Part shown: positions 19,168-55,976 of the stretch, piece after piece
Layout: each line of letters starts with the position of its first letter
Numbering within the stretch: position 1 is the first letter of the stretch
Assembly: GCA_964515545.1 (NCBI GenBank)
Contig: CAZERI010000002.1
Coordinates: 277,731-341,730 of the forward strand
DNA: 64,000 nt
Origin: an uncultured Gammaproteobacteria bacterium
GTDB taxonomy: Bacteria; Patescibacteriota; Microgenomatia; Levybacterales; UBA12049
Reading direction: 5' to 3'
The notes under the pieces: generated by a model
What the model saw: the letters and a program-made list of their open reading frames with translations, nothing else
Told to the model about the DNA's origin: nothing
The model's database searches: none
Made by a program: the position numbers and the translations under genes

Positions 19168-19239
19168 TGAGCCTGAGAGGATTCGAACCTCTAACCAATA
19201 CCTTAAGAGGGTACTGCTCTACCGTTGAGCTACAGGCCC
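19168..19239 (-). tRNA. tRNA-Lys (anticodon CTT)
   Basis: GGGCCTG acceptor, anticodon loop CTCTTAA, T-arm GAGGTTCGAATCCTC and discriminator A. Confidence 0.8.
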
Positions 19240-19266
19240 TATTATCATGCGTATTATACCAAAATG

Positions 19267-19341
19267 TACACCCGAAGGGACTTGAACCCCCGACCTTCTC
19301 GTCCGAAGCGAGACGCTCTAATCCAACTGAGCTACGGGTGC
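19267..19341 (-). tRNA. tRNA-Arg (anticodon TCG)
   Basis: GCACCCG acceptor, anticodon stem-loop TCTCG-CTTCGGA-CGAGA and T-loop TTCAAGT. Confidence 0.75.
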
Positions 19342-37222: not shown

Positions 37223-37293
37223 AGCGGGTGAAGGGAATCGAACCCTCGTATCAACTTTGGAAAAGTTGTGTTCTACCATTGAACTACACCCGC
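37223..37293 (-). tRNA. tRNA-Gly (anticodon TCC)
   Basis: GCGGGTG acceptor, anticodon stem-loop CAACT-TTTCCAA-AGTTG and discriminator U. Confidence 0.8.
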
Positions 37294-37299
37294 CAACTG

Positions 37300-37373
37300 T
37301 CGGGGACAGAGGACTTGAACCTCCGACCTCACGGTCCCAAACCGCGCGCTCTAGCCAACTGAGCTAGTCCCCG
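37300..37373 (-). tRNA. tRNA-Pro (anticodon TGG)
   Basis: CGGGGAC acceptor, anticodon stem-loop CGCGG-TTTGGGA-CCGTG and T-arm GGAGGTTCAAGTCCTC. Confidence 0.8.
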
Positions 37374-37390
37374 AGTTACTTCAACCGTTG

Positions 37391-37476
37391 TGGTGCCGCG
37401 GGGGGGAGTCGAACCCCCACGTCCTTGCGAACAAGGGCTCTTAAGGCCCCCGTGTATACCATTTCACCACCGCGGC
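37391..37476 (-). tRNA. tRNA-Leu (anticodon TAA), long variable arm, 3-prime CCA encoded
   Basis: GCCGCGG acceptor, anticodon stem-loop GGGGC-CTTAAGA-GCCCT, 13-nt variable arm, T-arm GGGGGTTCGACTCCCCC, then CCGCGGC-A-CCA. Confidence 0.8.
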
Positions 37477-41704: not shown

Positions 41705-44700
41705 ATGGCAAAAGAGACATCCTATCTTCATCATCTTCAATTTAATGAGCGTCTTAAGAATTCTTTGGTAGGCAAGTACTTGGCTAACCCTCGCTTACTT
41801 GTCCTCCTGCTATTAGCAATCATTGCTTTAGGAAGCTCCAGCTTTGCAAACCTCCCAAAAAGGGTTTTCCCCGAGATTAAAATTCCGATGGTTATTGTTA
41901 CTGGCGTACTGCCTGGAGCTAACCCTCAGGATGTAGAGTCACTTATTACCGAACCGCTTGAAGACAGTATCTCCGGCGTGGAGAACGTCTCTAAAGTTAC
42001 CTCTTCCTCAAGAGAAAATGCTGCAGTAATACAAATTGAATTTAATACTGGCGTGGATCCTGATAAGGCACGGACTGATGTCCAATCTGCCGTTGATCAA
42101 GTAGAGCTCCCAGCAGACGCCCAGACACCAAAAGTCCTCACCATTGACTTTGAAAATACGCCAGTCTGGACATTCGCTTTAATAGGAAAGGGAGATGTGG
42201 CAAGTCTTAATCGTTTTTCTAAAATCCTCCAAAAAAATCTTGAGGATCTTTCCAGTATCAATAATGTCACTACCGGAGGACTTGAGGAACGTGAGATCAG
42301 TGTAGTTATCGATTCAGCCAAGCTCACAACCTATGGCCTTTCGCCCATTCAGCTCTCTTCTCTTGTTAAATCAGCTCTTAGTTCATATCCGGCAGGTACT
42401 GTTACAACTCAGAATTCCTCTTTCGCCTTAAGTATAGATCCCCAGGTGACAACTATTAATGATATTCGTAATTTGCAGCTGAATAACGATGGAAATGTTA
42501 TCCCTCTTTCAAGTGTTGCAACTATTACAGAAAGATCAAAGCCCAATCAAAACCCATCTTTTATAGCATCTCATAATCTATCAGCTGAGAGATCAGTAAC
42601 ATTTAATGTCTTTAAGACACGAACTACCAATATAGATAAAGCTGTTAAAGATGCAGAGGGTGAAGTTACAGAGTCACTTGACCAATACAAAGGCCAATTT
42701 GAAATTCAATCTATCAGTAACGCTGGAGAAGACACTACAAAGCAGTTTAATGACTTAACTCACGATTTTATCGCTACTATTATATTGGTTTTCGTTGTAC
42801 TCTTCGTCTTCTTGGGAGCAAGACAGGCAATTGTTTCACTCTTTGCAGTTCCTCTAACATTTCTCATCAGTTTTTCTGTAATGAACAGCACAGGAATTTC
42901 TCTTAACTTTATTTCCATGTTCTCGCTTTTATTAGCACTAGGACTTCTTGTTGATGATACTATTGTTGTCATCTCAGCGATGACTGCATACTTTAGATCG
43001 GGGAAATTCACTCCAATTGAGACAGGCCTCCTTGTCTGGAAGGACTTTATTACACCGATTCTGACAACGACTCTTACTACAGTATTTGCGTTTCTCCCGA
43101 TTTTGATTTCAACAGGTATTATCGGAGAGTTCATTAAATCTATCCCGATTGTTGTTTCAAGTACTCTTATTGCATCATTTGGTGTTGCGATGCTTATTAC
43201 TTTACCGCTTATGATTATTCTTCTTCGTCCAACACTCCCAAAACGTGTGGTGATGTTACTAAAAGTTCTTCTTATTATTCTTCTTCTAGGAATATTTATT
43301 AGTATTTTGCCCAAAGGGCCTATCGTTATCCTTGCCCTTTTGGCTATGGGAGCATTCCTCTTTGTCACAATCCACATCAGATTACTTCTTATCAAAAGGA
43401 CAAAGGCTTATGTAAAGATGCAAAGTCGCAGGCATGAGATTGTTCGTCAAACGCCTCATTATCTGGAAAATGGGCTCATTAGCTTCCATACAATTAGTGA
43501 GAAATACAAAAAGATAATTAACAAAATATTAAGTAGTCAGAGTAATCGCCGTAAAGCGATTGCGATGGTTATTATCTTTTCTATCTTTTCTTATTTACTA
43601 GTTCCATTTGGTTTTGTCCAAAACGAATTCTTTCCTAAAAGCGATCAGAACTTTATCTCCATGACTGATGAATTACCAGCTGGGACTAATACTGAAACTG
43701 CAAGCAAAGAAGCTCTTGTATTAATTGATAAATTACGATCCGTTAAAAACGTTACTTACGTAACAGCAGACATTGGGCAGGCATCAGGAAGCTTCGGAGC
43801 AGAGGGTAGCAGCAGCAATAATATCCTTTTTTCTATGGTACTGCCTGATAAAAAGGATCGGGATCAGACCTCTATTGAAATCGGTCAGGAACTTCGGGAT
43901 ATGCTTAGTGACTACACAAAAGGCAAAATAACAGTAAGCGAATCCAGTGGAGGACCCCCAGCTGGTGCAGATTTACAGATTAATCTCTTTGGGGATGATT
44001 TAGGTATCCTTGACACCTATGCAGATAAAACGGTTGCATATCTTAAAAGCCAAAAAGGAGTTATTGACGTATCAAAAAGTATTAAACCTGGCACAAGTAA
44101 AATAGTTTTTGTCCCGCATCTTGAACAACTTGCAGCCAATAACATTACCCAAGATCAGTTAGGTCTATCCCTGCGTACCTTCGCTAGTGGATTCACCCTA
44201 GACTCAGCAAAAATCACAGTCGGAGGAGAATCTTCAGAGGACAAACAGGATATCACCCTCCGCTCTTCAACTAATCTTCAGACTGTCAGCGATATCTCAA
44301 CAGTTTCCATCCCAACTCAAAAAGGTACAGTTCCTCTTTCAAGCCTTGGAGAACTTAAGTTGAAAGCTAACCCAACGCTCATCACGAGAGAAGACGGCAA
44401 AAGGACAATTTCCGTAACCGCAACTGTTTCTCAGGGATATACTACAACTGAGCTTAACTCTAAACTAGAGAAGTACGCGAATACTGAATTAAAGCTTCCG
44501 CAAGGCTATAACTGGAAAACAGGAGGAGTTAATGAAGAAAATCAGAAATCTGTTAACTCAATTCTTCAAGCCATGTTAATTTCATTTCTGCTTATCATTG
44601 TAACAATGGTCGTTCAATTCGGTTCATTTAGAAAAGCTGTTATCGTTATGCTTGTTATTCCATTATCTATCTCTGGTGTCTTTATTATCTTTGCTCTCAC

Positions 44701-45076
44701 TCATACACCTCTCTCTTTCCCAGCTCTCATCGGAGTATTAGCACTTTTTGGTATTGTGGTTAAAAATTCTATCCTTATTGTAGATAAAATTACCGCAAAT
44801 GAGAGGATTGGGATGGATTTTGTGGATGGTATTGTAGATGGAGCATCAAGCAGGCTGGAGCCTATTGCTCTCACATCACTGGCTGCTATCATGGGCCTTA
44901 TCCCTATTACGATATCAGATCCATTATGGAGAGGATTAGGAGGCGCAATTATAGCCGGGTTAACATTCTCCGGCACTATCATGCTTTTCTTTATTCCGGT
45001 TGTTTATTATCTTTTATTTAGATCTCCAGAGAGAAAAGTATCTCGCAGCAGCTCTCCTCGAAAAAGGATAAAATAA
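41705..45076 (+). CDS. RND-family efflux transporter permease (AcrB/HAE-like), 12 TM
   Basis: 1123 aa. Two 6-TM bundles with large periplasmic loops. Conserved TM4 region GLLVDDTIVVI (charged relay Asp pair). Confidence 0.85.
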   Translation: MAKETSYLHHLQFNERLKNSLVGKYLANPRLLVLLLLAIIALGSSSFANLPKRVFPEIKIPMVIVTGVLPGANPQDVESLITEPLEDSISGVENVSKVTSSSRENAAVIQIEFNTGVDPDKARTDVQSAVDQVELPADAQTPKVLTIDFENTPVWTFALIGKGDVASLNRFSKILQKNLEDLSSINNVTTGGLEEREISVVIDSAKLTTYGLSPIQLSSLVKSALSSYPAGTVTTQNSSFALSIDPQVTTINDIRNLQLNNDGNVIPLSSVATITERSKPNQNPSFIASHNLSAERSVTFNVFKTRTTNIDKAVKDAEGEVTESLDQYKGQFEIQSISNAGEDTTKQFNDLTHDFIATIILVFVVLFVFLGARQAIVSLFAVPLTFLISFSVMNSTGISLNFISMFSLLLALGLLVDDTIVVISAMTAYFRSGKFTPIETGLLVWKDFITPILTTTLTTVFAFLPILISTGIIGEFIKSIPIVVSSTLIASFGVAMLITLPLMIILLRPTLPKRVVMLLKVLLIILLLGIFISILPKGPIVILALLAMGAFLFVTIHIRLLLIKRTKAYVKMQSRRHEIVRQTPHYLENGLISFHTISEKYKKIINKILSSQSNRRKAIAMVIIFSIFSYLLVPFGFVQNEFFPKSDQNFISMTDELPAGTNTETASKEALVLIDKLRSVKNVTYVTADIGQASGSFGAEGSSSNNILFSMVLPDKKDRDQTSIEIGQELRDMLSDYTKGKITVSESSGGPPAGADLQINLFGDDLGILDTYADKTVAYLKSQKGVIDVSKSIKPGTSKIVFVPHLEQLAANNITQDQLGLSLRTFASGFTLDSAKITVGGESSEDKQDITLRSSTNLQTVSDISTVSIPTQKGTVPLSSLGELKLKANPTLITREDGKRTISVTATVSQGYTTTELNSKLEKYANTELKLPQGYNWKTGGVNEENQKSVNSILQAMLISFLLIIVTMVVQFGSFRKAVIVMLVIPLSISGVFIIFALTHTPLSFPALIGVLALFGIVVKNSILIVDKITANERIGMDFVDGIVDGASSRLEPIALTSLAAIMGLIPITISDPLWRGLGGAIIAGLTFSGTIMLFFIPVVYYLLFRSPERKVSRSSSPRKRIK

Positions 45077-45237: not shown

Positions 45238-45266
45238 TTGACAGTATAGGACTCATCAGATAAGAT
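45238..45266 (+). promoter_or_regulatory. Sigma70-like promoter candidate (TTGACA-17-TAAGAT) about 315 nt upstream of the first repeat-protein gene
   Basis: ttgaca at 45238-45243 and taagat at 45261-45266. Confidence 0.35.
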
Positions 45267-45448
45267 CTTCTCTATGGGTAAGTGAGTCGGCCGTCAACGG
45301 AGACTAGGTGTTACAAAGATTTTCTTTTAACACATCAGGCAAATCCCAGACTGACAATGTGAGAACTTCAGATGATAATTCTGTGTTCTCGACTATAAAG
45401 TTATGACCTGCCCGTCATTGTTTTTTTCTATTTTACAAAAGGTTGACA

Positions 45449-45545
45449 ACCCCTTACATCTAATGTTGGAAAGATGTGAGGGGTTTTCTTTTACTTTTGA
45501 CCCTGCTCTCACTGTATCGAAGACAGATGAACAGTAAGAGCAGGG
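45449..45545 (+). promoter_or_regulatory. Structured 5-prime leader: a terminator-like hairpin (45449-45499, ACCCCTtACATC...GATGTgAGGGGT plus T-run) and a second long hairpin (45501-45545, CCCTGCTCT...AGAGCAGGG) directly before the RBS
   Basis: Inverted repeats visible in the sequence. A GGAGGTGA RBS sits 8 nt before the ATG at 45583. Confidence 0.4.
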
Positions 45546-45582
45546 GAATTTACCACTGACCGAGAAAGGAGGTGAGAAATAT

Positions 45583-46185
45583 ATGACAAACTGGAAAATC
45601 AAGCTTGCAACAGGAGTCGCTACTGCAACAGTCGTAGCGGTAGCTATCGCTCCTGCAACATTTGCATCCACTATCAAAGTTCATAACAATGCTAAAAAGT
45701 CTGTAAATATTGTTGGAGCTGCAACAGTTAAGACAACAATAGTAGGCCAAACAAACAATAACACTGTCCTTAACCTAACAGGTGTCTTCCAAAACACTGG
45801 CGTTAACAAAGCCAATGATAATATTGGAGATGGTGACGTCAAAGTCACTAGTGGCCCAGCAAACTCTGTTGTAAGTAACACTACAACAACTGGAGGAAAT
45901 ACTGCTACAGTCACTTCATGTGGCTGCGGTACAGATGATGACATCACTGTATCTGGTAATGGCAAAAAATCATTCAACCTTGTATTAGTAGGTAACTTTA
46001 CTACAACAGTTGTTTCTCAGACAAATAATAATACTGTTGTAAATGGAACAGTAGTAGCCCAAAATACAGGTGGCAATAAAGCCAATGATAACATCGGAGA
46101 TGGAGATGTTACCGTTACAAGTGGAGCTGCCAACTCAACTGTTACAAATACTGTAACAACTAGTGGCAATAGTCTTACTCTCTAA
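45583..46185 (+). CDS. Secreted Asn/Thr-rich repeat protein, paralog 1 (two ~95-aa modules separated by CGCG)
   Basis: Signal peptide MTNWKIKLATGVATATVVAVAIAPATFAST. The module QTNNNTV.N.T.V.QNTG.NKANDNIGDGDV.VTSG.ANS appears twice. Strong RBS. Confidence 0.75.
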   Translation: MTNWKIKLATGVATATVVAVAIAPATFASTIKVHNNAKKSVNIVGAATVKTTIVGQTNNNTVLNLTGVFQNTGVNKANDNIGDGDVKVTSGPANSVVSNTTTTGGNTATVTSCGCGTDDDITVSGNGKKSFNLVLVGNFTTTVVSQTNNNTVVNGTVVAQNTGGNKANDNIGDGDVTVTSGAANSTVTNTVTTSGNSLTL

Positions 46186-46212
46186 AGTAAGATTTCCTTT
46201 CCGGAAGGACAA

Positions 46213-46253
46213 AACCCTGCTTAAGGCACGTACGGCCTGATGCAGGGTTTTTT
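46213..46253 (+). terminator. Rho-independent terminator after paralog 1
   Basis: aaccctgc...gcagggtt 8-bp stem followed by TTTTT. Confidence 0.55.
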
Positions 46254-46300
46254 GTAGGATTCTTACACAAAAATAACATAGAAAGGTTTATAGTATACGG

Positions 46301-46765
46301 GTGATTAAGTATATTGCTGCCTTCGTATTTGCTCTTCTTACTATGATTGGATTGAGACAGCCAGCTCATGCAGAGACATCGGTTAATGTGGATAATACTA
46401 CCTCTACCGGAAGCAATACCCATGTAGTTGTTAATAGTAATGTAAATTCCTTATCAAATACTACTTCTGTCGTGAATTCTAACACTCGCGTCCATATAGA
46501 GACCAATGGAGAAGTCAAGGATTTCACCGCCACTGGAGATGAGTCGATCGATTGGCAGTCAGAAGATGGGAAATCTAGCGTCAAGATCAACACTTCTGCA
46601 AAAACTACCCCAAAACCTGAATCTGGTATATCCTCTGTCACCCCTTCAAGTACCCCCTCTGCCCAAGAGGAAGCTATCGAGGATAAGAAGTCGCCAGCTA
46701 CTCATGGATTTTCATTAGTCGATTTCTTTAAGAAAATCTTTTCTTTCTTAGGATTTTCTCATTAA
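46301..46765 (+). CDS. Secreted Asn/Ser/Thr-rich hypothetical protein
   Basis: GTG start. Signal peptide MIKYIAAFVFALLTMIGLRQPAHA. Low-complexity NSTV-rich N-terminal half. Confidence 0.5.
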   Translation: MIKYIAAFVFALLTMIGLRQPAHAETSVNVDNTTSTGSNTHVVVNSNVNSLSNTTSVVNSNTRVHIETNGEVKDFTATGDESIDWQSEDGKSSVKINTSAKTTPKPESGISSVTPSSTPSAQEEAIEDKKSPATHGFSLVDFFKKIFSFLGFSH

Positions 46766-46822
46766 GCTACTTCCTCTATTGACAAAAGGTGAAATATTTT
46801 CCACACTATAGATGAGGAGTAT

Positions 46823-46972
46823 ATGGCCAAGAAGAAAGCTCAATCAAATCCAGTTTCTAAAAATATTTTTGAAACTCCTGTACATGGCCTTATTGGCTAT
46901 GGAACACTCTTAGTCCTTGCTATCGTTGTCCTTGTCCTCGTTTATAGTCTCCAGTGGTATATCGTGCCTTAA
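46823..46972 (+). CDS. Small (49-aa) single-TM protein, not in the ORF track
   Basis: GAGGAG RBS 5 nt before ATG. MAKKKAQSNPVSKNIFETPVHGLIGYGTLLVLAIVVLVLVYSLQWYIVP. Confidence 0.35.
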   Translation: MAKKKAQSNPVSKNIFETPVHGLIGYGTLLVLAIVVLVLVYSLQWYIVP

Positions 46973-46973
46973 G

Positions 46974-47528
46974 TCAATTGATAGGAGAGGCATAAATAAG
47001 CAGTCTCTGCCAATCGGTCCCGATAGGCGTACACGTCTGAATAATAAGTTCATTTTTGTTTTCTCCAGTTACTGCTTTGACGTCGGTGGGACGTACCACT
47101 TTCTTATTAGTTACTCTGTAGTGAAACTCTTTCGAATTATGCCAGATAGTGATCTCGTCTCCTTCTTCTAGCTCGCCAAGACGGAGGAATACTGTATTAT
47201 AATGCGTTATCTCCCAGGGCATACCTGATGAATGAGCAAAAAGATATGTCACACCTTTTTCTCCCGGAAGTGCAAATCCTTTTCCTAATGCTATTCCGCT
47301 TTTAAGAGCTTTTTTATATTCATCTTCATTAAAAGGATCCACATTAGGAATAATCTTACCTCCAGCATGAATTTTAGGAATCCAGAGAGCAAACGCTCGT
47401 GATGTGGGTGAAGGGATTGAAGTAGGGAAGAGGTGGACATACAGTACCGGCCAGCCAATATAGATAAATCCTAGCAAAGAAAGAAGTATGAGTATATTCC
47501 CTACGTAATAGGCAATGGGTTTTTTCAT
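46974..47528 (-). CDS. srt: Sortase (cysteine transpeptidase) with N-terminal TM anchor
   Basis: Catalytic His region (LFAHSS), TLxTC-type Cys motif (LIIQTCTP) and conserved Arg (WQRLLIYA). Confidence 0.75.
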   Translation of the reverse strand: MKKPIAYYVGNILILLSLLGFIYIGWPVLYVHLFPTSIPSPTSRAFALWIPKIHAGGKIIPNVDPFNEDEYKKALKSGIALGKGFALPGEKGVTYLFAHSSGMPWEITHYNTVFLRLGELEEGDEITIWHNSKEFHYRVTNKKVVRPTDVKAVTGENKNELIIQTCTPIGTDWQRLLIYASPIN

Positions 47529-47595
47529 GGCTGTATTTTACTTTATTGAGGCTATGGAGTCAAAAAAAACTCCGCTTCTGCGGAGTCGGGGGCAA

Positions 47596-48720
47596 TTAGA
47601 GAGCAGGTGCAAATCCAGGAGACCTTCCGGATTTTAGTCTTAGCACGGCACCGAAGAAAAGCATTAAGAGATTTCCGATAATTGCAAAGAGGATCCATGG
47701 ATTACCAGTTGCAGGAAGAATTGGCCCTGTTGTGGCAGCAAGGACTCCAGGTCCGCCACTACTAGATCCACCGCCTCCACCATTACTTGGCGGGTTAGTT
47801 GGAGGAGTTACAGGCCCACAATCATGAGTGCAAGGTGGGGGAGGAGGTGGAGGAGTATGACATCCACAATCTACACTAACAGTATTAGTATTTGCGATAG
47901 TCTGAATATCAAGCGCAAGGTTAATATCTCCGCTCTCAATACTTACATTACCCTGATTATCATTTGCTGTATTGTTGCCAGTAATTAAATTCCAGATATT
48001 TAGATTAAGAATATCTGCTACGTTACTGACGTTAACAATGTTATTTTGATTTTGAGTCAGTGTAATAGTATTAATACTTCCCTTACCATTACCTGATATA
48101 TCAATACTAAATCCTCCAGTACTGCCGGTTGCCAAATGAACATTATTAGAATTAGTAACGGTCTTTATGGTTTCTTTGACAGTAATATTGCCTGACTTGA
48201 TACTAACATCACCTGAATTATTATTAGCTTTGTTATTACCTGTACTGACATTTCCGTTAGTAATAGTTACTATATGGGCAGTATTAGTACTATTTACTGT
48301 ATTTGTTGTTGTTGAGGTGTAGTTAACACTATTATTTGAATTCTGTCCATTATTAGAAATAGACGCCTGACTGTCTGTAGTACAATTACAGCCATTTAAA
48401 TCAGCCGAATTATGATTGGTATCAGTTGTAACATTGATTGTGTCAGAAGCATTGCCTGAGGATACTGATGCGTCTCCTGAATTATTACTTGCAGAGTTAT
48501 TCCCTGTATTCGAATTATTTGTCGTATTATTATTTACATTAGCATCATTAGACTGCTGTGATGTCGATTGGTTCTGAGACATTACAGTAACAGTATTTGC
48601 TGAACCTTGGCCATTGCCTGTAATACTCAGATCTTCAGCATGAGCTTTGACTGTAAAGGCTGATACAGGCAGAACAACAGCCGTTATGAGTGAACTAATA
48701 ATTACTCTTTTTTGTATCAT
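47596..48720 (-). CDS. Repeat surface protein, paralog 3, with C-terminal LPATG sortase sorting signal
   Basis: Signal peptide. Repeat modules ISGNG.GS.NT...NNTANDNQGNVSIESGD and CxC motifs (NGCNCTT, CGCHTPPPPPPPCTHDCG). C-terminal LPATG, then a hydrophobic stretch, then the RLKSGRS tail. Confidence 0.8.
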   Translation of the reverse strand: MIQKRVIISSLITAVVLPVSAFTVKAHAEDLSITGNGQGSANTVTVMSQNQSTSQQSNDANVNNNTTNNSNTGNNSASNNSGDASVSSGNASDTINVTTDTNHNSADLNGCNCTTDSQASISNNGQNSNNSVNYTSTTTNTVNSTNTAHIVTITNGNVSTGNNKANNNSGDVSIKSGNITVKETIKTVTNSNNVHLATGSTGGFSIDISGNGKGSINTITLTQNQNNIVNVSNVADILNLNIWNLITGNNTANDNQGNVSIESGDINLALDIQTIANTNTVSVDCGCHTPPPPPPPCTHDCGPVTPPTNPPSNGGGGGSSSGGPGVLAATTGPILPATGNPWILFAIIGNLLMLFFGAVLRLKSGRSPGFAPAL

Positions 48721-48771
48721 AATAGATTACCTATTTCTGAGCAGAAAATTATGGCGGGCAGGGGAACTAAT

Positions 48772-50946
48772 TTAGACAGTTATATTTCTCTTAAGAAATC
48801 TTCTTCCTAGTGCTGCTACTCCTAAAAGAGGAAGTAAAACAACCATCCAGGCAAGATTAATACTTATTTCATGGATATTATTAGTAAGAGCGTTTTTAAG
48901 CTGTGAATTTTTAGCAATATTACTTGCTCCGGCAACTAATACATTGCCACCCTGACCTTGATTAGAAGAGAGCTGCGTATTACCACCTTGGTATGAAGTA
49001 GTCTTACTGCTAGCGCCCATAACTGCAGTCTGAGTTGTTTGATTCGAGTTAGTATTTGCCGAATTATTATTTGAGCTATTAGCTGAGTTACTGCTTGGCT
49101 GCTGACTATTATTTCCTGACTGAGTTGTAGCTTGTTTAGTCTGGCCAGGTGCTATGAAGTCACCAAACCATGATCCGAAGACATTAACAACAGTTACTAC
49201 TAGCTTACCATTACCAGAGATATTGTTATTAACAAAATTGATAAGGTTGGCAATGATTGTTGCATCTCCGCTTTTGACAGTATTGTCACCGCCCAAGTTG
49301 TCATGAGATCTATTGTCTCCGGTATTTGCTGAAAGGTTAAGGTTGTTATTAATAGTAGCGTTATTAGATTGAGTTGTAGTATTAGTATTATTTGTTGTAC
49401 TTGATGCGTTATTAGTAGAACCCTCTCCATTACCATTGTTAGATGCAGTGATGGAGCCATCATCGTTAACTATAAATTCAGTTCCATCAGATCCAGCCAT
49501 ATTCCCATCAGCTCCTAAGAGCTTACCTACCCATTTACCAGCCTGATTAACGATAACAAGCCACATTGTCTGTCCATCAATATTAGAATTAGCTACATTA
49601 AGAACATTTGCAGTTACTTTTGTATCGCCTGAGGAGACGTTAGCTCCTCCGCCGTTATCACTTGCATAGTTATCCCCAGTTGAAGCATTAAGGTTAAGAT
49701 TATTATTAATGTTCGCGTTATTTGATTGATTAGTCGTGTCAGTATTATTAGTTGTGTTGGAAGCAGTATTCGTCGAATTTGCTCCGTTGTTGGCATTCAT
49801 AGTTGCACTAGGATTAGCTACTTCTTCCTCAGGTAAGATGATATCTCCATGTAATTCCCCATAGATATTGACTACGTTATACTGAACTTTGCCTCCCTCA
49901 ATATTATTATTTGCAAGAGTAAGTGCATTAGCTGAGACATTGGCATCACCTGACTCAACACTCGTATCCCCATCGATATTGTCATGTGCTCTGTTGTGGC
50001 CGGAATCAGCAACTAAGTTCATATCTGTTCCGATAGTTGCGTCATTATTCTGGAATGTATTATCAGTATTGTTAGTAGTACTATTTGCAGTATTTGTTGA
50101 ATCCTCACCATTGCCCTTATTGATGACTACATTCGGAGCAGTTGAGCCACAGCCTGAGATACAATGAGACGCAGAGTTAAGAATGAGGTCGCCATTCTGA
50201 ACATCATTAACATTGAACTCTGATACTGCAACGTTATCAAGATTTGAGTTAACTCCAGTTATCGCTGTGCCTGAGACATTCGCATCACCTGATTTAACAG
50301 TAACGTCTCCGCCTATATTGTCATTAGCCCGATTACTGCCAGTCACTGCAGACTGATTAAGAGTAGTATTTACATTAGCGCTGTTGTTCTGGTTAGTATT
50401 AGTAGTGTTATTTGTCGTTGATGAACCTGTATTTGTTGAGCCCTCACCATTTCCTGAGTTAACTACAGCACCTGATGGCGTATCTCCTATTGTCGCACCA
50501 CTGACAGTCTGTGGGGAGGTTGTTGTCGACTGCCCAGATGGTAAAGTAGGGGTTGGCTTAGGAGCACTTATTTTATTTTTCTTTGGCTGAGGAGTTGGAG
50601 TTGGTTGAGCCTCATCTGAAGTGTTCGTTGATGAGCTGCCAGAATTAGTTGATGGAGTATCTGTTGTAGCCTGCACCCCTGCATCAGAAGATGGGGTAGG
50701 GGTAGGAGTGACAGACACAATAGGTGCTGGCGTGATAGGCGCAATTGGCGTTATAGGTTGGTTATCCGGTGAGATAGGAGTTATAGGTGTTACTGGCGAT
50801 ATAGGACTTGACTGCTCCTGACTTTGGGTTGGAGTAGGAGTAGGTACGTCTTCTGCAAAGGCAAATGATACATTGCCGAAGAGCATTAACCCTACGACGT
50901 AAATTGCTACGATTTTTTGCATTTTTTCTTTAAATGTTTGTTTCAT
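48772..50946 (-). CDS. Repeat surface protein, paralog 4 (724 aa) with P/T-rich linker and at least 5 repeat modules
   Basis: Signal peptide. A 100-aa PT-rich spacer is followed by modules GNGEGSTN...TG.N.A.DN.GGD..V.SGDA with HCISGCGS between modules. C-terminal hydrophobic segment plus RRFLKR tail, without a canonical LPxTG. Confidence 0.75.
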   Translation of the reverse strand: MKQTFKEKMQKIVAIYVVGLMLFGNVSFAFAEDVPTPTPTQSQEQSSPISPVTPITPISPDNQPITPIAPITPAPIVSVTPTPTPSSDAGVQATTDTPSTNSGSSSTNTSDEAQPTPTPQPKKNKISAPKPTPTLPSGQSTTTSPQTVSGATIGDTPSGAVVNSGNGEGSTNTGSSTTNNTTNTNQNNSANVNTTLNQSAVTGSNRANDNIGGDVTVKSGDANVSGTAITGVNSNLDNVAVSEFNVNDVQNGDLILNSASHCISGCGSTAPNVVINKGNGEDSTNTANSTTNNTDNTFQNNDATIGTDMNLVADSGHNRAHDNIDGDTSVESGDANVSANALTLANNNIEGGKVQYNVVNIYGELHGDIILPEEEVANPSATMNANNGANSTNTASNTTNNTDTTNQSNNANINNNLNLNASTGDNYASDNGGGANVSSGDTKVTANVLNVANSNIDGQTMWLVIVNQAGKWVGKLLGADGNMAGSDGTEFIVNDDGSITASNNGNGEGSTNNASSTTNNTNTTTQSNNATINNNLNLSANTGDNRSHDNLGGDNTVKSGDATIIANLINFVNNNISGNGKLVVTVVNVFGSWFGDFIAPGQTKQATTQSGNNSQQPSSNSANSSNNNSANTNSNQTTQTAVMGASSKTTSYQGGNTQLSSNQGQGGNVLVAGASNIAKNSQLKNALTNNIHEISINLAWMVVLLPLLGVAALGRRFLKRNITV

Positions 50947-51001
50947 ATTGTTATTAGTTAATTGTTATTAGTAATTAGTTTTATTTTTATATCTTATGTG
51001 T

Positions 51002-51036
51002 ATGAGGTGTCTCGGAAGTGTTCGAGAACACCTCAT
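51002..51036 (-). terminator. Extended hairpin 13 nt downstream of the paralog 5 stop (probable terminator or processing site)
   Basis: atgaggtgt...acacctcat 9-bp stem with an inner ctcg...cgag stem. AT-rich tract follows on the minus strand. Confidence 0.35.
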
Positions 51037-51048
51037 ACAGCGATAAGA

Positions 51049-52290
51049 TTAAACAGTCATCCAAGCCATCCAAGAAGCCCAAAATTGATTCCAGTTGAAA
51101 TCAAAGTGAACTTGATTGTTACCAGGCATAGGAAGAGTGAGACCAGTTCCAACAGTATTAGTGTTACCACTAGTACCTACGTTAACGTCAGTAGATGCAT
51201 CACCAGAGGTGACGTGTGGATCAGAAAGATCTGAACCTCCATTGTCGTTAGCTTTGTTGTGACCAGTTTCTTTGTTCACATTTGTATTGTTGTTAGCATT
51301 CAAGACTGAAGTCTGGAATGTACCTGCATCGTTGCAAAGAGTTGCACCGATTGTGTTTTCAGAATCTCTCAAGTTATGAGCGATCTTAGCAGTAAGAGCC
51401 ATATTGCAGCATGCATCAAGTGACGCAGCGTTAAAGTTGGCCATTGTGTCAACGTTTACATCTGTGTTTGCTTTTCCAGATTTGACATAAACTTCGCCTC
51501 CGAGATTATCGTTAGCTCTGTTGAAGCCTGTATCTGAATTAACATTGGTGTTGTTATTAACATTTGCTACATTTGTTTGAGCAACTTCTGCACTGTTTCT
51601 AAGAGCAAGAGCGATAGAATTTACACTACCACGTCCATTCCCAAGAATTTGTGCACTTACACCATTGTTAGCACCGGCACTACCACCACCGACATTAGCG
51701 ACGTTAGAGTTAACTGCTGTTCCAAGTGTGACTGAAGTATCAACCATACCTGATTCAACACGAACATCCCCATCACCAAGATTGTCGTTAGCTTTGTTGT
51801 GGCCAGTGTTTGAATTAACGGTAGTGTTGTTATTAACATTAGCTACGTTCGTTTGAGTGACACCTGTTGAATTAGATTGTTGTAATCCAACTGTGTTTTC
51901 ACTGTTACGTCCGTTTCCACTGATGAGAACATCAGTACTACCATTGCAGCTTCCGCAGTTAGCAACGTTTGCAACGTTTGAGTTGGCATTGTTATTAACA
52001 GTGACATCTGTAGTTGCTGCGCCAGACTTAACATTTACATCTCCGCCAATGTTGTCATTAGCTTTGTTGTGACCAGTGTCAGAATTGACAGTGGTGTTGT
52101 TGTTAATATTAGCGACGTTGGTCTGAGTTACAGTAGTTGAATTATGAGTTGCAACTGCTGCTTCATTTACTGAATCTCTACCGTTTCCGGAGATTTCAAT
52201 TGTTGATGCTGCGAATGCTGGAGCTACTGAACCTACTAAGACTGTACCGGTTGCGATAGCTGTTGCGATTCTAAGTTTTAAATTTGTCAT
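51049..52290 (-). CDS. Repeat surface protein, paralog 5 (four ~90-aa modules)
   Basis: Signal peptide MTNLKLRIATAIATGTVLVGSVAPAFAAST is near-identical to that of paralog 1. The module ISGNGR.S.N...TQTNVANVNNNT.VNS.TG.NKANDN.GG.V.VKSG.A.TDV appears four times with CGSC and ACC between modules. GGGGGTGA RBS before the ATG at 52290. Confidence 0.75.
   Translation of the reverse strand: MTNLKLRIATAIATGTVLVGSVAPAFAASTIEISGNGRDSVNEAAVATHNSTTVTQTNVANINNNTTVNSDTGHNKANDNIGGDVNVKSGAATTDVTVNNNANSNVANVANCGSCNGSTDVLISGNGRNSENTVGLQQSNSTGVTQTNVANVNNNTTVNSNTGHNKANDNLGDGDVRVESGMVDTSVTLGTAVNSNVANVGGGSAGANNGVSAQILGNGRGSVNSIALALRNSAEVAQTNVANVNNNTNVNSDTGFNRANDNLGGEVYVKSGKANTDVNVDTMANFNAASLDACCNMALTAKIAHNLRDSENTIGATLCNDAGTFQTSVLNANNNTNVNKETGHNKANDNGGSDLSDPHVTSGDASTDVNVGTSGNTNTVGTGLTLPMPGNNQVHFDFNWNQFWASWMAWMTV
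51238..52135. repeat. Intragenic tandem DNA repeats (four copies of about 270 bp, roughly 80% identical) inside paralog 5. Similar repeats occur in 48.9-50.5 kb inside paralog 4.
   Basis: The repeated core ttgtcgttagctttgttgtg(g/a)ccagt...gttgttattaacattagc(t/g)acgtt is seen near 51250, 51500, 51780 and 52050. Confidence 0.6.
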
Positions 52291-52391
52291 AATATACTCA
52301 CCCCCTCTCTTGACGATGATTCCCAAACTTTTTTAAAGTAAGGGACACTTCACCCCGCTTACTTTGCTAGATGCCTGAGGCCCTAACAAAA

Positions 52392-52444
52392 AAAACGGAA
52401 GCCCCACTAACTTTCATTCAAAAAGTTAGTAAGGTTTCCGTTTT
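52392..52444 (-). terminator. Long bipartite hairpin (outer 9-bp stem aaaacggaa/ttccgtttt, inner 8-bp stem actaactt/aagttagt) followed on the minus strand by a U8 tract. Terminator for the upstream minus-strand gene, insulating it from the repeat locus.
   Basis: Inverted repeats and a T/A run (forward aacaaaaaaaa at 52386-52396). Confidence 0.5.
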
Positions 52445-52658
52445 AGCTAGTTTTGTCAATCTAATAGTTATCATTTTATTTTTAAAAAGTACCTGTTAGC
52501 GCTTCAATATTCTGTAATATCTCTTACAATCTTCACCTCTTACCTGATTCCAACAAAAAAGCACCACACATAATTGTGAGGTGCCTCCGATAACGGTCAG
52601 CGATCCTTTAAAAAATTCGCTTAATTTTCTATAAATATAACCCTGTTAAAAAACCTTG

Positions 52659-52850
52659 TCAAGACCCAATTTTCACAGTCTTATTTTTTGCTACAGATGA
52701 TGCTGTTTTTCTAATATTTCTTTCTGTAATCTGAACAACTTTACTATCTTGGACATATATCTCAATGCTGCCCCATCCACGGATATTGGTTAGTGCTTCC
52801 ACTATTTCTGCAATTAGTTCTTTACTGACATTTCTTGTTGAATAGTCCAT
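52659..52850 (-). CDS. Small DUF2292/YezD-like protein
   Basis: 63 aa. The GWGSIEIYVQDSKVVQITE core resembles the YezD family. Confidence 0.3.
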   Translation of the reverse strand: MDYSTRNVSKELIAEIVEALTNIRGWGSIEIYVQDSKVVQITERNIRKTASSVAKNKTVKIGS

Positions 52851-52880: not shown

Positions 52881-53489
52881 TTAAAGAGAGATCTTGATAT
52901 CTTCTTTTTTACCTTGTATTTCTCCTACTTGTAAGGTGAATTTTTTCTGATCAGAATCAATAGGAAAACCAATTCTCGTATACTTGGTAGAGATTGCTTG
53001 TACTTCAACCGGATCGTTATGAATATCTGCTGCCAATTTTTCTGATGAGCCGTTAAGTATTAAGCGGACATAGTCTCGTGCATTAATCTGAACTGCTTTT
53101 GTATAGTTATTAGTGAGCTTTAAATTAAGGATAGCGAATGTTCTTCCTTTCACTGCGGTTGCTGTCTCACCTTTAACAATAATCTGATCTCTCAGTTCGA
53201 TATTCTGGATCTCGTATGAGATAGTGCTTACTTCTTTACCTGTATCATCTTTAAGAGGGAATTTAAAGGTCTTATTAAGAGTCTGAGTAGCTCGTGGCTT
53301 TTGCACACTGACTTGCTCTGCTGATGCGGATCCGCCAGTTATTCCTGATGAGGTGCTATTTTTACGAAGAGAAAGAAGTCCTAATACCAGTACAATAAAA
53401 ATAATAACTGCAACGGGAATATAAAGATTTTTTTTAATTTTACTGAAGTCAAATTTTTGACGGCGGATTGGTGTAAAGTTAGTATCCAT
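52881..53489 (-). CDS. Hypothetical membrane-anchored extracytoplasmic protein
   Basis: N-terminal TM (YIPVAVIIFIVLVLGLLSL) followed by a beta-rich domain. Confidence 0.4.
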   Translation of the reverse strand: MDTNFTPIRRQKFDFSKIKKNLYIPVAVIIFIVLVLGLLSLRKNSTSSGITGGSASAEQVSVQKPRATQTLNKTFKFPLKDDTGKEVSTISYEIQNIELRDQIIVKGETATAVKGRTFAILNLKLTNNYTKAVQINARDYVRLILNGSSEKLAADIHNDPVEVQAISTKYTRIGFPIDSDQKKFTLQVGEIQGKKEDIKISL

Positions 53490-54015: not shown

Positions 54016-54735
54016 CTAACGCACAATTTCCTGCTTAAGTGGAACAGGTTTTCGAAGTAAAGCAGTATAGACATACCCCCTTGTATACTGCACCAATGTC
54101 CTGAGACCATTTTTCTCCCAGCGTCGCATTGAAGGAGCAACTTTCATTTTTTTCACCAGGACAATTTTTCCGTATTTCTTAAGACGTAAACCAAGTTCCA
54201 CATCTGAACTCATCTCATAAGATGTATTCATACCTCCGATTTTATGATATGTCTCTCTCCGAACTGCAAAATTAAAACCTACCAAATGAGGAATACCTAC
54301 CCAAAAATTAATCTGTAAAAAAATCATATATAAAAAATTATTAAGTCTAGTGAAAGGACTCTTCTCTGCTATTCCTATGGATCCTGTGGCCCCGACTATA
54401 TGTGAATCACTAAAGGTCTTTTGTATTACCTCCAGCCAGTCAGGAGCAACTACTGTATCAGCATCCACCCCAGCGATAACGTCTCCACGTGCTGCATCTA
54501 ATCCGCCTTTCATTGCATAGACATTCCCTTGTTGTCTTACAGGGACAACCCTTGCTCCATATGATTTAGCTATTTCAGAAGTTTTATCAGTTGAGTTGTT
54601 ATCAGCCACAATAATCTCAAATGGGGTAAAAGATTGCGCTTTAAGGCTTTCTAATGCTGCAGGCAAATACTTTTCCTCATTAAATGCAGGAATAACTACA
54701 GAAATGGTAACTGGACTTTTATCAGTAGACTGCAT
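54016..54735 (-). CDS. Glycosyltransferase family 2
   Basis: VVIPAFNEEKYL, DxD (GVDADT) and GT-A fold motifs. Confidence 0.75.
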   Translation of the reverse strand: MQSTDKSPVTISVVIPAFNEEKYLPAALESLKAQSFTPFEIIVADNNSTDKTSEIAKSYGARVVPVRQQGNVYAMKGGLDAARGDVIAGVDADTVVAPDWLEVIQKTFSDSHIVGATGSIGIAEKSPFTRLNNFLYMIFLQINFWVGIPHLVGFNFAVRRETYHKIGGMNTSYEMSSDVELGLRLKKYGKIVLVKKMKVAPSMRRWEKNGLRTLVQYTRGYVYTALLRKPVPLKQEIVR

Positions 54736-54737
54736 AA

Positions 54738-55976
54738 TTATTCAAAAATTCTATCAAGTATCTCAGTTGTTTTATAAAGTCGTCTAAATGCTGAGGTATT
54801 AAGCCCTTTAAGAGAAATCCTGCGAGGTTTTTTATTAATGAGAGCTTCCTGGTAAAGATAAATCATATCTTCGGCTACATGCTTTGGATCAAAATTTTCT
54901 TTTACAAGCTCTTTTGATCTTTTCCCAAAGGTTTCCCTTTTTTCTTTATCTTCAAGAAGTTCAATTACTTTTTGTGCAAAGAGGGAAGTACTCTCAGAGA
55001 CCATAAAGCCATTCTCATTATCTATAACCATGCCTTTATATGCTCCGTCTTTCACCACCACAAAAGGAAGCCCTGAAGCAGCTGCTTCGAGAAGAACTAT
55101 TCCTTGCGTCTCCGTTCGAGAAGTAAAAAGGAAGATCTCTGCATCAGCGTAGGCTAGGGCGATCTTCTTCTGTTCTATTTTACCTGGAAAATGGACTCGT
55201 CCTCCCAACTCAAGACTTCTTGAGTATTCTTTAATATTATCTGCTTCATCTCCATCTCCTACGATAACTAAATGGGAAAGAGATTCCTTTTCGGTAATTT
55301 TTTTAAAGGCATCAAGTAAGAATAAAAAGTTCTTCTCAATTCCCATTCTTCCAACACTCAAAAGGATTGGTACATTCTTCGGAATACTGCAAAGTTCATG
55401 GAGATATCCTTTTTCGGTATGACTAAATCTATCAGGATAGATAAAATTTGGCACCACAGCTATCGGCTTCTTGACGCCGTATGACACGAGCTCTTTTTTC
55501 ATTTTATAAGAAGGAGTAATAACAGTGTCACAAATATTGGCAGAAATTCGGAGACCTTTAGCAGCCATACTAGGGGTAATTACTTTCCCATTTAAAAGAT
55601 AATGGACGTAGCGTGTCATTTCTGTATGGAATGTCATAAAGAAAGGAACTCCTTTTACTTTTGCTAATTGATAGCCTAGAAGAGAAAAAAATCCATTTCC
55701 ATGAGCATGAATCACATCAAAATCCCGTGGCTGAATCTGTGTGAGATAGTGATGGGGGAGAAGGAATGGTACATGTACTCCAGGATCCGTTGAAAAAAAT
55801 CTTAAAGACTTGAGACGATAAACGTCTTTTTCTGTATCAGTATATCCTTCGATTTTAGGAGCAAAAATATAAACTGTATGCCCAAGAGAACGCATCTCTT
55901 TAGCAAAATTTTCAACAGAGACAGTAACTCCGTTAAGCATCGGATAGTAGCTATCCGTAAAAAAAGCTATTTTCAT
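54738..55976 (-). CDS. Glycosyltransferase family 4 (GT-B, group 1)
   Basis: C-terminal E-x7-E-like region (FLFTSRTETQGIVLLEAAASGLPFV). Separated from the preceding GT2 gene by 2 nt. Confidence 0.75.
   Translation of the reverse strand: MKIAFFTDSYYPMLNGVTVSVENFAKEMRSLGHTVYIFAPKIEGYTDTEKDVYRLKSLRFFSTDPGVHVPFLLPHHYLTQIQPRDFDVIHAHGNGFFSLLGYQLAKVKGVPFFMTFHTEMTRYVHYLLNGKVITPSMAAKGLRISANICDTVITPSYKMKKELVSYGVKKPIAVVPNFIYPDRFSHTEKGYLHELCSIPKNVPILLSVGRMGIEKNFLFLLDAFKKITEKESLSHLVIVGDGDEADNIKEYSRSLELGGRVHFPGKIEQKKIALAYADAEIFLFTSRTETQGIVLLEAAASGLPFVVVKDGAYKGMVIDNENGFMVSESTSLFAQKVIELLEDKEKRETFGKRSKELVKENFDPKHVAEDMIYLYQEALINKKPRRISLKGLNTSAFRRLYKTTEILDRIFE

Follow-up and report, generated by a model that had tools for sequence, protein, structure and literature searches.

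A conserved sortase-linked cassette of Asn-rich repeat proteins as a candidate surface polymer system of Microgenomates-type CPR bacteria

Secreted proteins made of Asn-rich repeats and encoded side by side with a sortase raise the question of whether such genes form one system and, if so, what it might build on the cell surface. We analysed a locus of this kind in a window of 64 kb, which is the whole stretch of DNA studied here. Microgenomates account for a large share of the Candidate Phyla Radiation (CPR) and are uncultured, and earlier comparative work described a sortase that is almost ubiquitous as well as many hypothetical membrane proteins enriched in particular lineages, without connecting the two (PMC6744442). 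The literature searched, its coverage being incomplete and absence unproven, held no description of the gene cassette presented below; a paper on a "Knotted Solenoid" concerns Brevundimonas proteins unrelated to it. The following genes were considered:

45583 to 46185, plus strand: A200, secreted protein with two modules (i-E 5.7e-29 and 3e-26), without anchor
46301 to 46765, plus strand: B154, small secreted protein, no module paralog, outside the conserved cassette
46974 to 47528, minus strand: sortase with N-terminal membrane helix, His in FAHSS, Cys in IQTCTP and Arg in QRLLIY
47596 to 48720, minus strand: C374, with signal peptide and three modules, followed by a stalk rich in Cys, Pro and Gly and an LPATG sorting signal
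48772 to 50946, minus strand: D724, with signal peptide, Pro/Thr-rich N-terminal linker, four modules, S/N/Q-rich linker, C-terminal INLAW motif, membrane helix and basic tail
51049 to 52290, minus strand: E413, with signal peptide and four modules, ending in a short aromatic/hydrophobic tail, without anchor
52659 to 52850, minus strand: DUF2292 (YezD-like) protein of 63 aa, without signal peptide (Pfam 32.6 bits, cutoff 22)
52881 to 53489, minus strand: F202, single-pass membrane protein of 202 aa whose extracytoplasmic domain is beta-rich, conserved as the gene that opens the cassette

A200, C374, D724 and E413 share an Asn/Thr/Gly-rich module of about 85 aa. It is present in 13 copies (two in A200, three in C374, four each in D724 and E413), which are 28–65% identical and can be aligned almost without gaps; in the 64-kb window, the module was found in no other open reading frame. 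Composition-corrected BLASTP connected E413 with A200 (48% identity over 189 aa, E 9e-33), C374 (E 3e-25) and D724 (E 2e-11), and the similarity of A200 to the N-terminal half of E413 includes the signal peptide. Asn contributes 14–19% of the residues, and short Cys motifs are located between the modules. An earlier interpretation of this DNA from its letters only, here called the sequence-only reading, had given the same open reading frames and the same Asn-rich repeats separated by small Cys motifs, both of which were borne out, and had put the module at about 90 aa. Of the five paralogs it had counted, four stood. The fifth, B154, carries no module (module HMM E = 6; BLASTP to the paralogs E ≥ 0.07), and its phmmer matches were limited to copies in the same genome and one locus of another species (L023).

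Using a profile of the module, 2248 cluster representatives were collected at E ≤ 1e-3, with lengths clustering at about 410, 500 and 750 aa. The module was matched neither when all cassette proteins were scanned with Pfam and NCBIfam nor when 31 E413 homologs were scanned with Pfam, and sequence and profile searches of the PDB with E413 and the family alignments A1 and A4 gave 0 matches. Judged by these searches, the module is an undescribed repeat domain family that Pfam does not contain; the sequence-only reading had not placed it in a named family either. The 112 E413 homologs are nearly all 400–430 aa long, all annotated as hypothetical and without Pfam domains; their alignment (A1) has conserved N, Q and G positions and a tail of the form F.FD...L.

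To collect related loci, the D724 family alignment was used as query, and 84 loci were retained after removal of redundancy. They belong mostly to Microgenomates, represent more than 80 species of ultra-small CPR bacteria and show the near-identical gene order F202 – DUF2292 – E413 – D724 – C374 – sortase, with D724 present in 84/84. Where there was room upstream of D724, F202 was found in 70/70, E413 in 69/70 and DUF2292 in 64/70 loci, with a median gap of 9 nt between F202 and DUF2292 and a median spacer of about 320 nt (68 loci) between DUF2292 and E413. Downstream of D724, the sortase followed in 63/74 and a sorting-signal substrate in 64/74 loci, so that the co-localisation of repeat and sortase extends to related genomes. 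The substrate–sortase pair was not directly downstream in 11/74 loci, two of which have the sortase upstream, and an A200-type homolog of about 200 aa with two modules lies nearby on the opposite strand in 29/67 loci; therefore, these two arms are not strictly required in cis. The conserved unit continues beyond the end given to it in the sequence-only reading, up to position 53489, which adds DUF2292 and F202. In view of the synteny across 84 loci, the cassette is one system and not a chance clustering. Genes for DsbA/DsbB, met initially in loci L004 and L007, adjoin it in just 5/84 loci, and a link between them and the Cys motifs was therefore rejected.

DUF2292 was also recorded for the orthologous genes in L005–L007 (weakly in L007) and appears to be an accessory gene conserved in the cassette. 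F202 repeatedly gave sub-threshold matches to DUF4352, DUF5067 and DUF4830 and is a candidate assembly factor. In D724, each of the four modules is followed by a hydrophobic hairpin insert; in the family alignments A2 and A3, inserts such as VVNVFGSW.GDF are invariant, and an NLAW...P motif is seen as well. With its C-terminal helix, D724 is a candidate for a membrane-anchored base.

The sortase assignment of the sequence-only reading was confirmed by Pfam (Sortase PF04203, E 1.9e-18, 66.9 bits, cutoff 26.6) and by TIGR01076 (48.7, cutoff 39.35). The Cys region and the Arg can be aligned to the class C sortase 8t28, and the His, Cys and Arg features are conserved in the orthologs. All class-specific NCBIfam models remained below their cutoffs, including those of classes D, E and F and the top-scoring class C model NF033745 (56.5, cutoff 160); among solved structures, class C sortases come closest, with weak similarity (E 5.6e-7). 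At the C-terminus of C374 (ILPATGNPWILFAIIGNLLMLFFGAVLRLKSGRSPGFAPAL), the expected order of LPATG motif, hydrophobic stretch and basic tail was indeed seen (ILPATG-NPWILFAIIGNLLMLFFGAVL-RLKSGR...). Pfam offered no match to C374 at E ≤ 1, not even with Gram_pos_anchor, and this sorting signal was therefore called by inspection of the sequence. Among the C374 orthologs, LPx[TS]G occurs in 41 and GL[SA]x[TA][SGA] in 17 loci, and the tail of the signal has a conserved LRLRSGRSPGF motif. The type of the signal co-varies with that of the active site (Fisher p = 7e-7): all 17 of the GL[SA]x[TA][SGA] signals are paired with [YF]TC[ST]G sortases, and 28/28 QTCTP sortases with a recognisable signal are paired with LPx[TS]G. 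Adjacency in 63/74 loci together with this co-variation supports a dedicated enzyme–substrate pair, in which C374 is the candidate sortase substrate and wall-anchored base.

Expression signals were then compared between the cassette genes, for which the following features of the window are relevant:

46211 to 46256, plus strand: terminator-like hairpin and U-run after A200 (-33.5 kcal/mol, z -3.5; stem, then UUUUUU)
47568 to 47587, minus strand: intrinsic terminator between C374 and the sortase gene (8-bp stem with 5 GC pairs, then TTTTTT)
50991 to 51049, minus strand: hairpin of very high stability immediately behind the E413 stop codon (-30.7 kcal/mol, z -8.3; 0/200 shuffles as stable)
52291 to 52662, minus strand: long spacer upstream of E413 with the best promoter-like site of the region and a leader hairpin (52434–52402)

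Across the loci, a Shine-Dalgarno match of at least 5 nt precedes 93% of the E413 and 93% of the A200-type genes, as compared to 4–11% for every other cassette gene. Stable 3′ hairpins (z < -3) follow E413 in 99% of 76 loci and A200-type genes in 93% of 30, and are found elsewhere at lower frequency (D724 2%, F202 3%, DUF2292 7%, C374 21%, sortase 24%). The window repeats this pattern. Strong Shine-Dalgarno sites are present only at E413 (GAGAGGGGGTGAG) and A200 (GAAAGGAGGTGAG), that of C374 is weak and D724 has none; hairpins or terminators follow E413, A200 and C374, and are not found after D724 or the sortase gene. The site upstream of E413 (TTGACA-17-TATATT, 52662–52634) has 11/12 matches; promoter-like sites overall were at chance level in the scan of the region (30 sites, 27.3 expected). 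Hence, of the ribosome binding site, promoter and terminator that the sequence-only reading had ascribed to each gene, the hairpins after three genes could be retained, whereas strong ribosome binding sites are confined to two genes and promoters do not exceed chance. The strong Shine-Dalgarno sites and very stable 3′ hairpins mark E413 and A200 as putative abundant subunits, E413 being the candidate major subunit and A200 a candidate abundant small subunit, while D724 and C374 look like low-level anchors. The hairpin after E413 may serve as an attenuator or mRNA stabiliser.

The fold of the module was approached by structure prediction and covariation. AlphaFold returned an all-beta model for D724 residues 150–612 (pLDDT 75.1, pTM 0.69, 156 residues ≥ 90), in which the modules have equal long strands, and a model of low confidence for E413 (pLDDT 56.8), with which a Foldseek search was meaningless (TM ~0.05). 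Mean-field DCA gave the intra-module couplings 14-32, 16-32, 14-28, 34-43, 7-48 and 20-76, which fit a closed serpentine rung, and near-register inter-module couplings at z > 5, of which 13 were found for adjacent modules and one each for modules two or three apart. On repeats this method is confounded by subfamily structure, and a first run was dominated by gap artefacts; same-position couplings between modules, equally strong for non-adjacent modules, were discarded as subfamily artefacts. The fold search gave no significant match, solenoids included, the best ones being beta-solenoids, beta-rolls and the functional amyloids FapC and CsgA (E 0.59–0.91, TM ~0.06; CsgA 8c50 with E 0.91 and TM 0.06). 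Covariation and the moderate AlphaFold model together suggest that each module is one rung of a wide beta-solenoid. The beta-solenoid of the sequence-only reading thus received indirect backing, set against the poor E413 model and the missing solenoid match.

We infer fold, polymerisation, peptidoglycan attachment and cellular function as follows. With a probability of roughly one half, this envelope cassette of Microgenomates-type CPR bacteria builds a surface protein polymer that is tethered at two levels. Four Sec-secreted paralogs would each contribute two to four modules, a module most likely being one rung of a wide beta-solenoid. E413 and A200, free of anchors and equipped with signals of abundant products, would be the building blocks. 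The adjacent sortase would cut C374 at LPATG and link it to the cell wall, presumably to peptidoglycan, and D724 would be kept in the membrane by its C-terminal helix. Exposed beta-edges of the anchored modules could then dock or template the free subunits, resulting in a fibre or sheet tethered to wall and membrane, with the membrane-anchored F202 and its beta-rich ectodomain, as well as DUF2292, as probable conserved accessory factors. A more far-reaching and rather doubtful version would see in the cassette the main proteinaceous surface structure of Microgenomates, namely a CPR-specific amyloid-like cross-beta polymer of solenoid rungs of about 85 residues, grown from paralog anchors in membrane and wall. 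If true, this would add a new class to the bacterial surface polymers, and the polymer might account for the envelope layer or the filaments seen on ultra-small groundwater cells.

The same components could instead make a two-dimensional S-layer-like coat, in which E413 would be the main lattice protein and C374 and D724 the wall and membrane tethers. We consider this unlikely, as Pfam and NCBIfam scans detected neither SLH nor any other S-layer anchoring domain, open-edged stacked rungs would favour growth in one dimension, and the weak fold matches carry no statistical weight. Still more improbable is that the four paralogs act on their own at the surface, for instance as adhesins for host or substrate or as Ca2+-, ice- or mineral-binding proteins, and were clustered by tandem duplication without making a joint structure. 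In more than 80 species their order, module number and lengths are fixed and they are anchored in four different ways, and the gradation of the expression signals speaks for an assembly of defined stoichiometry. Adhesins usually diversify. The proteins lack a variable tip and a ligand-binding domain, and HemolysinCabind gave no match. A fast-evolving host-specific adhesin is likewise argued against by the high conservation of sequence and length.

Assembly by the sortase itself, as proposed in the sequence-only reading, would correspond to a covalent Spa-type pilus with LPXTG subunits joined head-to-tail via a pilin-motif Lys. Such a pilus would agree with the closest solved sortases, which are class C pilus sortases, with the top-scoring if sub-threshold NCBIfam class C model, with the two sortases at a few loci (L028, L034 and L041) and with the roughly 80% conserved Lys of the "AKI" at the start of E413 module 4. 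However, each locus has a single paralog with a sorting signal, which shows the expression signals of a minor component, and every Lys in the mature part of the C374 and D724 family consensus is conserved to less than 80%. Also, a DPF-like motif is not conserved among the orthologs, and the modules do not resemble Ig/CnaB-like pilin domains. The class C pilus was rejected on the sub-cutoff HMM score and the lack of a conserved pilin-type Lys, and a covalent pilus in general is very improbable. With one weakly signalled substrate and no such Lys, the term sortase-assembled goes too far; most likely, the enzyme anchors one minor component and does not polymerise the structure. No conserved residue for intersubunit cross-linking was identified; Cys motifs of the types CxC, CC and CxxC also occur.

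The proposed tethered polymer can be compared with several known systems. In Streptomyces, the long chaplins ChpA–C are anchored by sortase and the short chaplins ChpD–H are secreted. As in the cassette, paralogs with one small beta domain are partly fixed to the wall by sortase and partly free, abundant and assembling on the fixed ones, the subunits have paired Cys, and the envelopes are monoderm. However, the families are unrelated (no match to Chaplin PF03777), a hydrophobic domain of about 40 aa contrasts with the Asn-rich module of about 85 aa, and the cassette goes beyond the chaplins in having a paralog anchored in the membrane as well as F202 and DUF2292, and in being one syntenic operon that includes a sortase of its own. 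Curli and Fap resemble it in subunits built of imperfect tandem repeats with a high Asn, Gln and Gly content, for which in-register stacking of rungs is predicted, and the logic of an anchored nucleator (CsgB) and a free major subunit (CsgA) would be common to both; they differ in their diderm envelopes, the outer-membrane channels CsgG and FapF and their shorter repeats (about 22–35 aa). Because of the Foldseek values given above, a structural similarity to curli or Fap is not established; Curlin_rpt PF07012 had no match at E ≤ 1–5 in the four window proteins and the 31 E413 homologs, nor did Chaplin, Fap and RTX (HemolysinCabind) family HMMs match the cassette proteins. An assembly as in chaplins and curli, carried out by unrelated proteins, is in our analysis the best reading, and if the polymer exists, the principle of anchored nucleator and free subunit would extend to an unrelated CPR family. 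For the surface of Microgenomates, the cassette connects the sortase and the hypothetical membrane proteins of the earlier comparative work and supplies candidate components: the E413 family as the probable major subunit, its probable anchors and the probable main substrate of the sortase. It also defines a new repeat domain family with about 2,200 cluster representatives.

Pam pili have been reported with homologs in Saccharimonadia and Microgenomatia; their pilins consist of a beta-sandwich and a truncated Ig-like domain and are assembled by donor-strand exchange, in which PapD-like chaperones and not a sortase take part (Troman et al., bioRxiv 2026, doi 10.64898/2026.03.03.709456). In both systems, a conserved, CPR-specific operon encodes paralogous filament subunits (putative ones in the cassette) that are exported by Sec and have paired cysteines; some components are retained by a membrane helix at the C-terminus, and a machine spanning the envelope is absent. 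Compared by the description of Pam, the cassette is set apart by its tandem 85-aa modules, its sortase with an LPXTG substrate and the lack of a chaperone-like gene in Pfam; as it contains neither two-domain pilins nor a chaperone, an identity with Pam pili was rejected. With Gram-positive pili and LPXTG proteins, it has in common the His, Cys and Arg of the sortase, the tripartite sorting signal and an enzyme gene adjoining that of the substrate. It differs from them by a sortase in no curated class, one substrate only, main subunits without sorting signals, no pilin-motif Lys, and a minority of loci in which a GLSxTS-type signal is used together with a distinct active-site motif.

All open reading frames that the sequence-only reading had named in this region were recovered (A200, B154, the sortase, C374, D724 and E413; proteins are named by their length in amino acids). 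Two further genes, F202 and DUF2292, belong to the same conserved order, so the cassette reaches position 53489 and is larger than the locus first outlined. The genes in the window are as follows.

45583–46185, forward strand: A200, open reading frame with the boundaries proposed earlier
46301–46765, forward strand: B154, small Ser/Thr-rich open reading frame with a signal-peptide-like N-terminus, between sortase and A200
46974–47528, reverse strand: sortase, with matches to Pfam Sortase and TIGR01076
47596–48720, reverse strand: C374, modules, Cys/Pro/Gly-rich stalk, LPATG
48772–50946, reverse strand: D724, modules, hydrophobic hairpins, C-terminal membrane helix
51049–52290, reverse strand: E413, whose ATG start agrees with the 413-aa database entry P0001
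52659–52850, reverse strand: DUF2292 (YezD-like), small protein without signal peptide, after F202
52881–53489, reverse strand: F202, membrane protein at the head of the cassette

The number of paralogs had to be lowered from five to four, since B154 lacks the repeat module (module HMM E = 6). As it is moreover kept in only one other species locus (L023), B154 is a lineage-specific insertion into the cassette.

The Asn/Thr/Gly-rich module of about 85 aa is present in 13 copies (A200 2, C374 3, D724 4, E413 4), which share 28–65% identity in an almost gap-free alignment with the consensus.I.GNG..S.NT...T..NT..V.QTN.AN.NNNTN.N..TG.N.ANDN.GGDV.V.SG.A.......T..N.N.; it was found in no further open reading frame of the 64-kb window. 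The kinship of the copies exceeds low complexity, because composition-corrected BLASTP gave significant matches (A200–E413, E 9e-33; C374–E413, E 3e-25; D724–E413, E 2e-11). The repeat had initially been placed in no named family, and the database checks agree: Pfam and NCBIfam gave no match for the module in the four window proteins, Pfam yielded nothing consistent for 31 E413 homologs, and PDB sequence and profile searches returned 0 matches even at E ≤ 10. A profile built from the 13 modules of the window detected 2248 cluster representatives out of 1.84 billion, of which 1474 had E ≤ 1e-10. Their lengths gather near 410, 500 and 750 aa, with a few reaching up to 1183 aa, and named homologs are annotated as 'hypothetical protein' almost throughout, with no informative name in the sources. 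As far as seen, the module is an undescribed domain family limited to CPR bacteria. Close Cys pairs (CxC, CC, CxxC, CxxxC) are conserved at the module ends and may form intersubunit disulfides or local staples; DsbA/DsbB genes rarely adjoin the cassette.

Neighborhoods of distant E413 homologs (36–48% identity) keep the order F202, DUF2292, E413, D724, sorting-signal paralog and sortase, the F202 counterpart being a membrane protein of about 200–245 aa in first position. A scan of GTDB species representatives for the D724 family yielded at least 126 relatives, from which 80 loci were kept. Gene presence was tabulated by HMM over 84 non-redundant loci, counting only loci with room for the respective gene: upstream, F202 was present in 70/70, E413 in 69/70 and DUF2292 in 64/70; downstream, the sortase was present in 63/74 and the sorting-signal paralog in 64/74; on the opposite strand, a two-module gene of about 200 aa was present in 29/67. 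The uncharacterised proteins of this cassette form a genuine, strongly conserved system. Record titles of the loci name Levy-, Woese-, Gottesman-, Chisholm-, Ames- and Daviesbacteria, Microgenomates and 'Patescibacteria group', as well as one Nealsonbacteria and one Parcubacteria. Many other contigs (among loci L008–L087) are titled 'uncultured Gammaproteobacteria', 'Pseudomonadales', 'Rhodocyclaceae' or 'Methylomirabilota'; because these contigs carry the cassette, such labels look unreliable.

Judged from their domain layout, the paralogs are predicted to use four anchoring modes. E413 has four modules behind its signal peptide and ends in a short aromatic tail, whose family consensus is F.FD...L and then hydrophobic residues; this tail is too short to span a membrane. 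A200 resembles the N-terminal half of E413, with a similar signal peptide. C374 carries a Cys/Pro/Gly-rich stalk ahead of its LPATG. D724 has a Pro/Thr-rich linker at its N-terminal side and a conserved hydrophobic hairpin after each of its four modules (e.g. VVNVFGSW.GDF). This hairpin is a second repeat of about 20–25 aa, (V/L)VN(I/V)(F/Y)G.(L/W).GD, absent from the other paralogs and predicted at pLDDT 85–95; the modules are followed by an S/N/Q-rich linker, a nearly invariant NLAW...P motif and a C-terminal membrane helix.

The proposed sortase and the LPATG sorting signal were both confirmed. The enzyme matched Pfam Sortase (E 1.9e-18) and exceeded the cutoff of TIGR01076, while none of the curated sortase class models reached its cutoff. 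At its C-terminal end (47596–47720), C374 carries ILPATG followed by hydrophobic residues and a basic tail. Most of its orthologs have (I/V/M)LP[AVIST]TG followed by a membrane helix and the conserved tail LRLRSGRSPGF, which goes beyond the short basic stretch usually found there. In a minority, the protein ends in GL[SA]x[TA][SGA] plus helix. The active-site motif of the sortase co-varies with the type of sorting signal (Fisher p = 7e-7): all 17 GLS-type signals (17/17) adjoin [YF]TC[ST]G sortases, and all QTCTP sortases with a recognisable signal (28/28) adjoin LPx[TS]G. Sortase and C374 thus appear to form a dedicated pair. To our knowledge, neither the LRLRSGRSPGF tail nor the GL[SA]x[TA][SGA] signal is among known sortase signals. 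The closest solved structures are class C enzymes, which match weakly (E 5.6e-7). Covalent polymerisation of a pilus by the sortase is nevertheless unlikely, because no conserved lysine that could serve as pilin nucleophile is present in the C374 or D724 family; the simpler reading is that the enzyme anchors one component, as predicted for C374.

AlphaFold modelled E413 with 31 homologs poorly (pLDDT 56.8). The D724 core with 111 sequences reached pLDDT 75.1 and pTM 0.69, with 156 residues at ≥ 90; this model is all beta, with an identical strand pattern in every module, including a 31-residue run in strand state. Mean-field DCA of 1701 gap-free modules gave intra-module couplings (7–48, 14–32, 16–32, 14–28, 34–43, 20–76) that suit a closed serpentine of about five strands, its end meeting its start. 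When module pairs were concatenated, 13 near-register couplings (z > 5, offset by 2 or 4 residues) linked adjacent modules, against 1 each for modules two and three apart. Same-position couplings were discarded as subfamily artefacts, because they were equally strong in non-adjacent modules. Together, the D724 model and the couplings favour a putative wide beta-solenoid with one module per rung, where the Asn, Gln and Gly positions that are invariant would stack into ladders. This agrees with the earlier suggestion of a beta-solenoid with Asn ladders, though the coil would be far larger.

Among the new results, the expression signals are the most informative; they appear to split major components (E413, A200) from minor ones. 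In the window, strong Shine-Dalgarno sites precede only E413 and A200; a very stable hairpin (−30.7 kcal/mol, z −8.3) lies 3′ of the E413 stop codon and a hairpin with U-run 3′ of A200, whereas no comparable 3′ hairpin follows D724 or the sortase. The same split recurs across loci.

Expression signals by gene family (Shine-Dalgarno ≥ 5 nt; 3′ hairpin with z < −3)
E413: 93%; 99% of 76
A200-type (about 200 aa, two modules): 93%; 93% of 30
D724: 6%; 2%
C374: 6%; 21%
Sortase: 7%; 24%
F202: 4%; 3%
DUF2292: 11%; 7%

The spacers have medians of 9 nt for F202–DUF2292, about 320 nt for DUF2292–E413 (68 loci) and about 104 nt for E413–D724. The spacer before E413 (52291–52662, reverse strand) may serve as a leader with a regulatory or stabilising role: it contains a hairpin at 52402–52434 and the region's best promoter-like site, a near-consensus TTGACA-17-TATATT, although promoter-like sites overall were no more frequent than by chance; Rfam gave no known family for it. 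The layout resembles major-pilin or S-layer operons, in which the gene for an abundant subunit, equipped with a leader and attenuator of its own, precedes assembly and anchor genes expressed at low level.

Taken together, E413 and A200 would be free subunits that are made in abundance and expose open beta-edges; C374 would be linked to the wall via the sortase and D724 held in the membrane. By displaying the same module, C374 and D724 could offer docking or templating sites, the product being a tethered fibre or sheet. F202, which is membrane-anchored with recurrent sub-threshold DUF4352/DUF5067 matches in its ectodomain, may be an assembly factor; DUF2292 places a small cytoplasmic protein within a surface cassette. 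The initial idea of a novel sortase-assembled fibre or adhesin is thus better defined and partly supported: the conserved cassette stands, while we infer its polymerisation, wall linkage and function.

The proposed logic resembles that of chaplins and curli, but the proteins are unrelated, and chaplin and curli family HMMs matched none of the cassette proteins. The Pam pili of CPR bacteria, with Ig-like pilins, donor-strand exchange, PapD-like chaperones and no sortase (Troman et al., doi 10.64898/2026.03.03.709456), are a different system. Méheust et al. (PMC6744442) reported that Microgenomates have a near-ubiquitous sortase and are enriched in many uncharacterised families, and the cassette is not described there; a literature search of incomplete coverage found no published account of it. 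A sortase-tethered assembly of paralogs is in itself known. New is the undescribed module family, as far as seen CPR-limited, on which this putative assembly of beta-repeat subunits is built.

Two glycosyltransferases, GT2 and GT4, flank the cassette (54016–55976, reverse strand), and in the related locus L004 the sortase is followed by a large GT2/GT4 fusion; these enzymes may be connected with the synthesis of wall polysaccharide or with the glycosylation of Thr/Ser-rich surface proteins. The window holds nine tRNAs, including clusters of three genes at 37223–37476 and two at 19168–19341 (both reverse strand), and no rRNA. An RND/AcrB-family transporter of 1123 aa (ACR_tran; 41705–45076, forward strand) is preceded by a 479-aa protein with YknX/CusB-type membrane-fusion domains, a notable pair in a bacterium thought to lack an outer membrane. 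Beside the cassette in two species, on the opposite strand, lies a cluster (L005:13339–16153 and L006:13836–16718) that could be a second secreted-fibre system. Its products are a TasA/camelysin-like protein (Peptidase_M73), a protein with an LTD domain and one that matches HemolysinCabind weakly.
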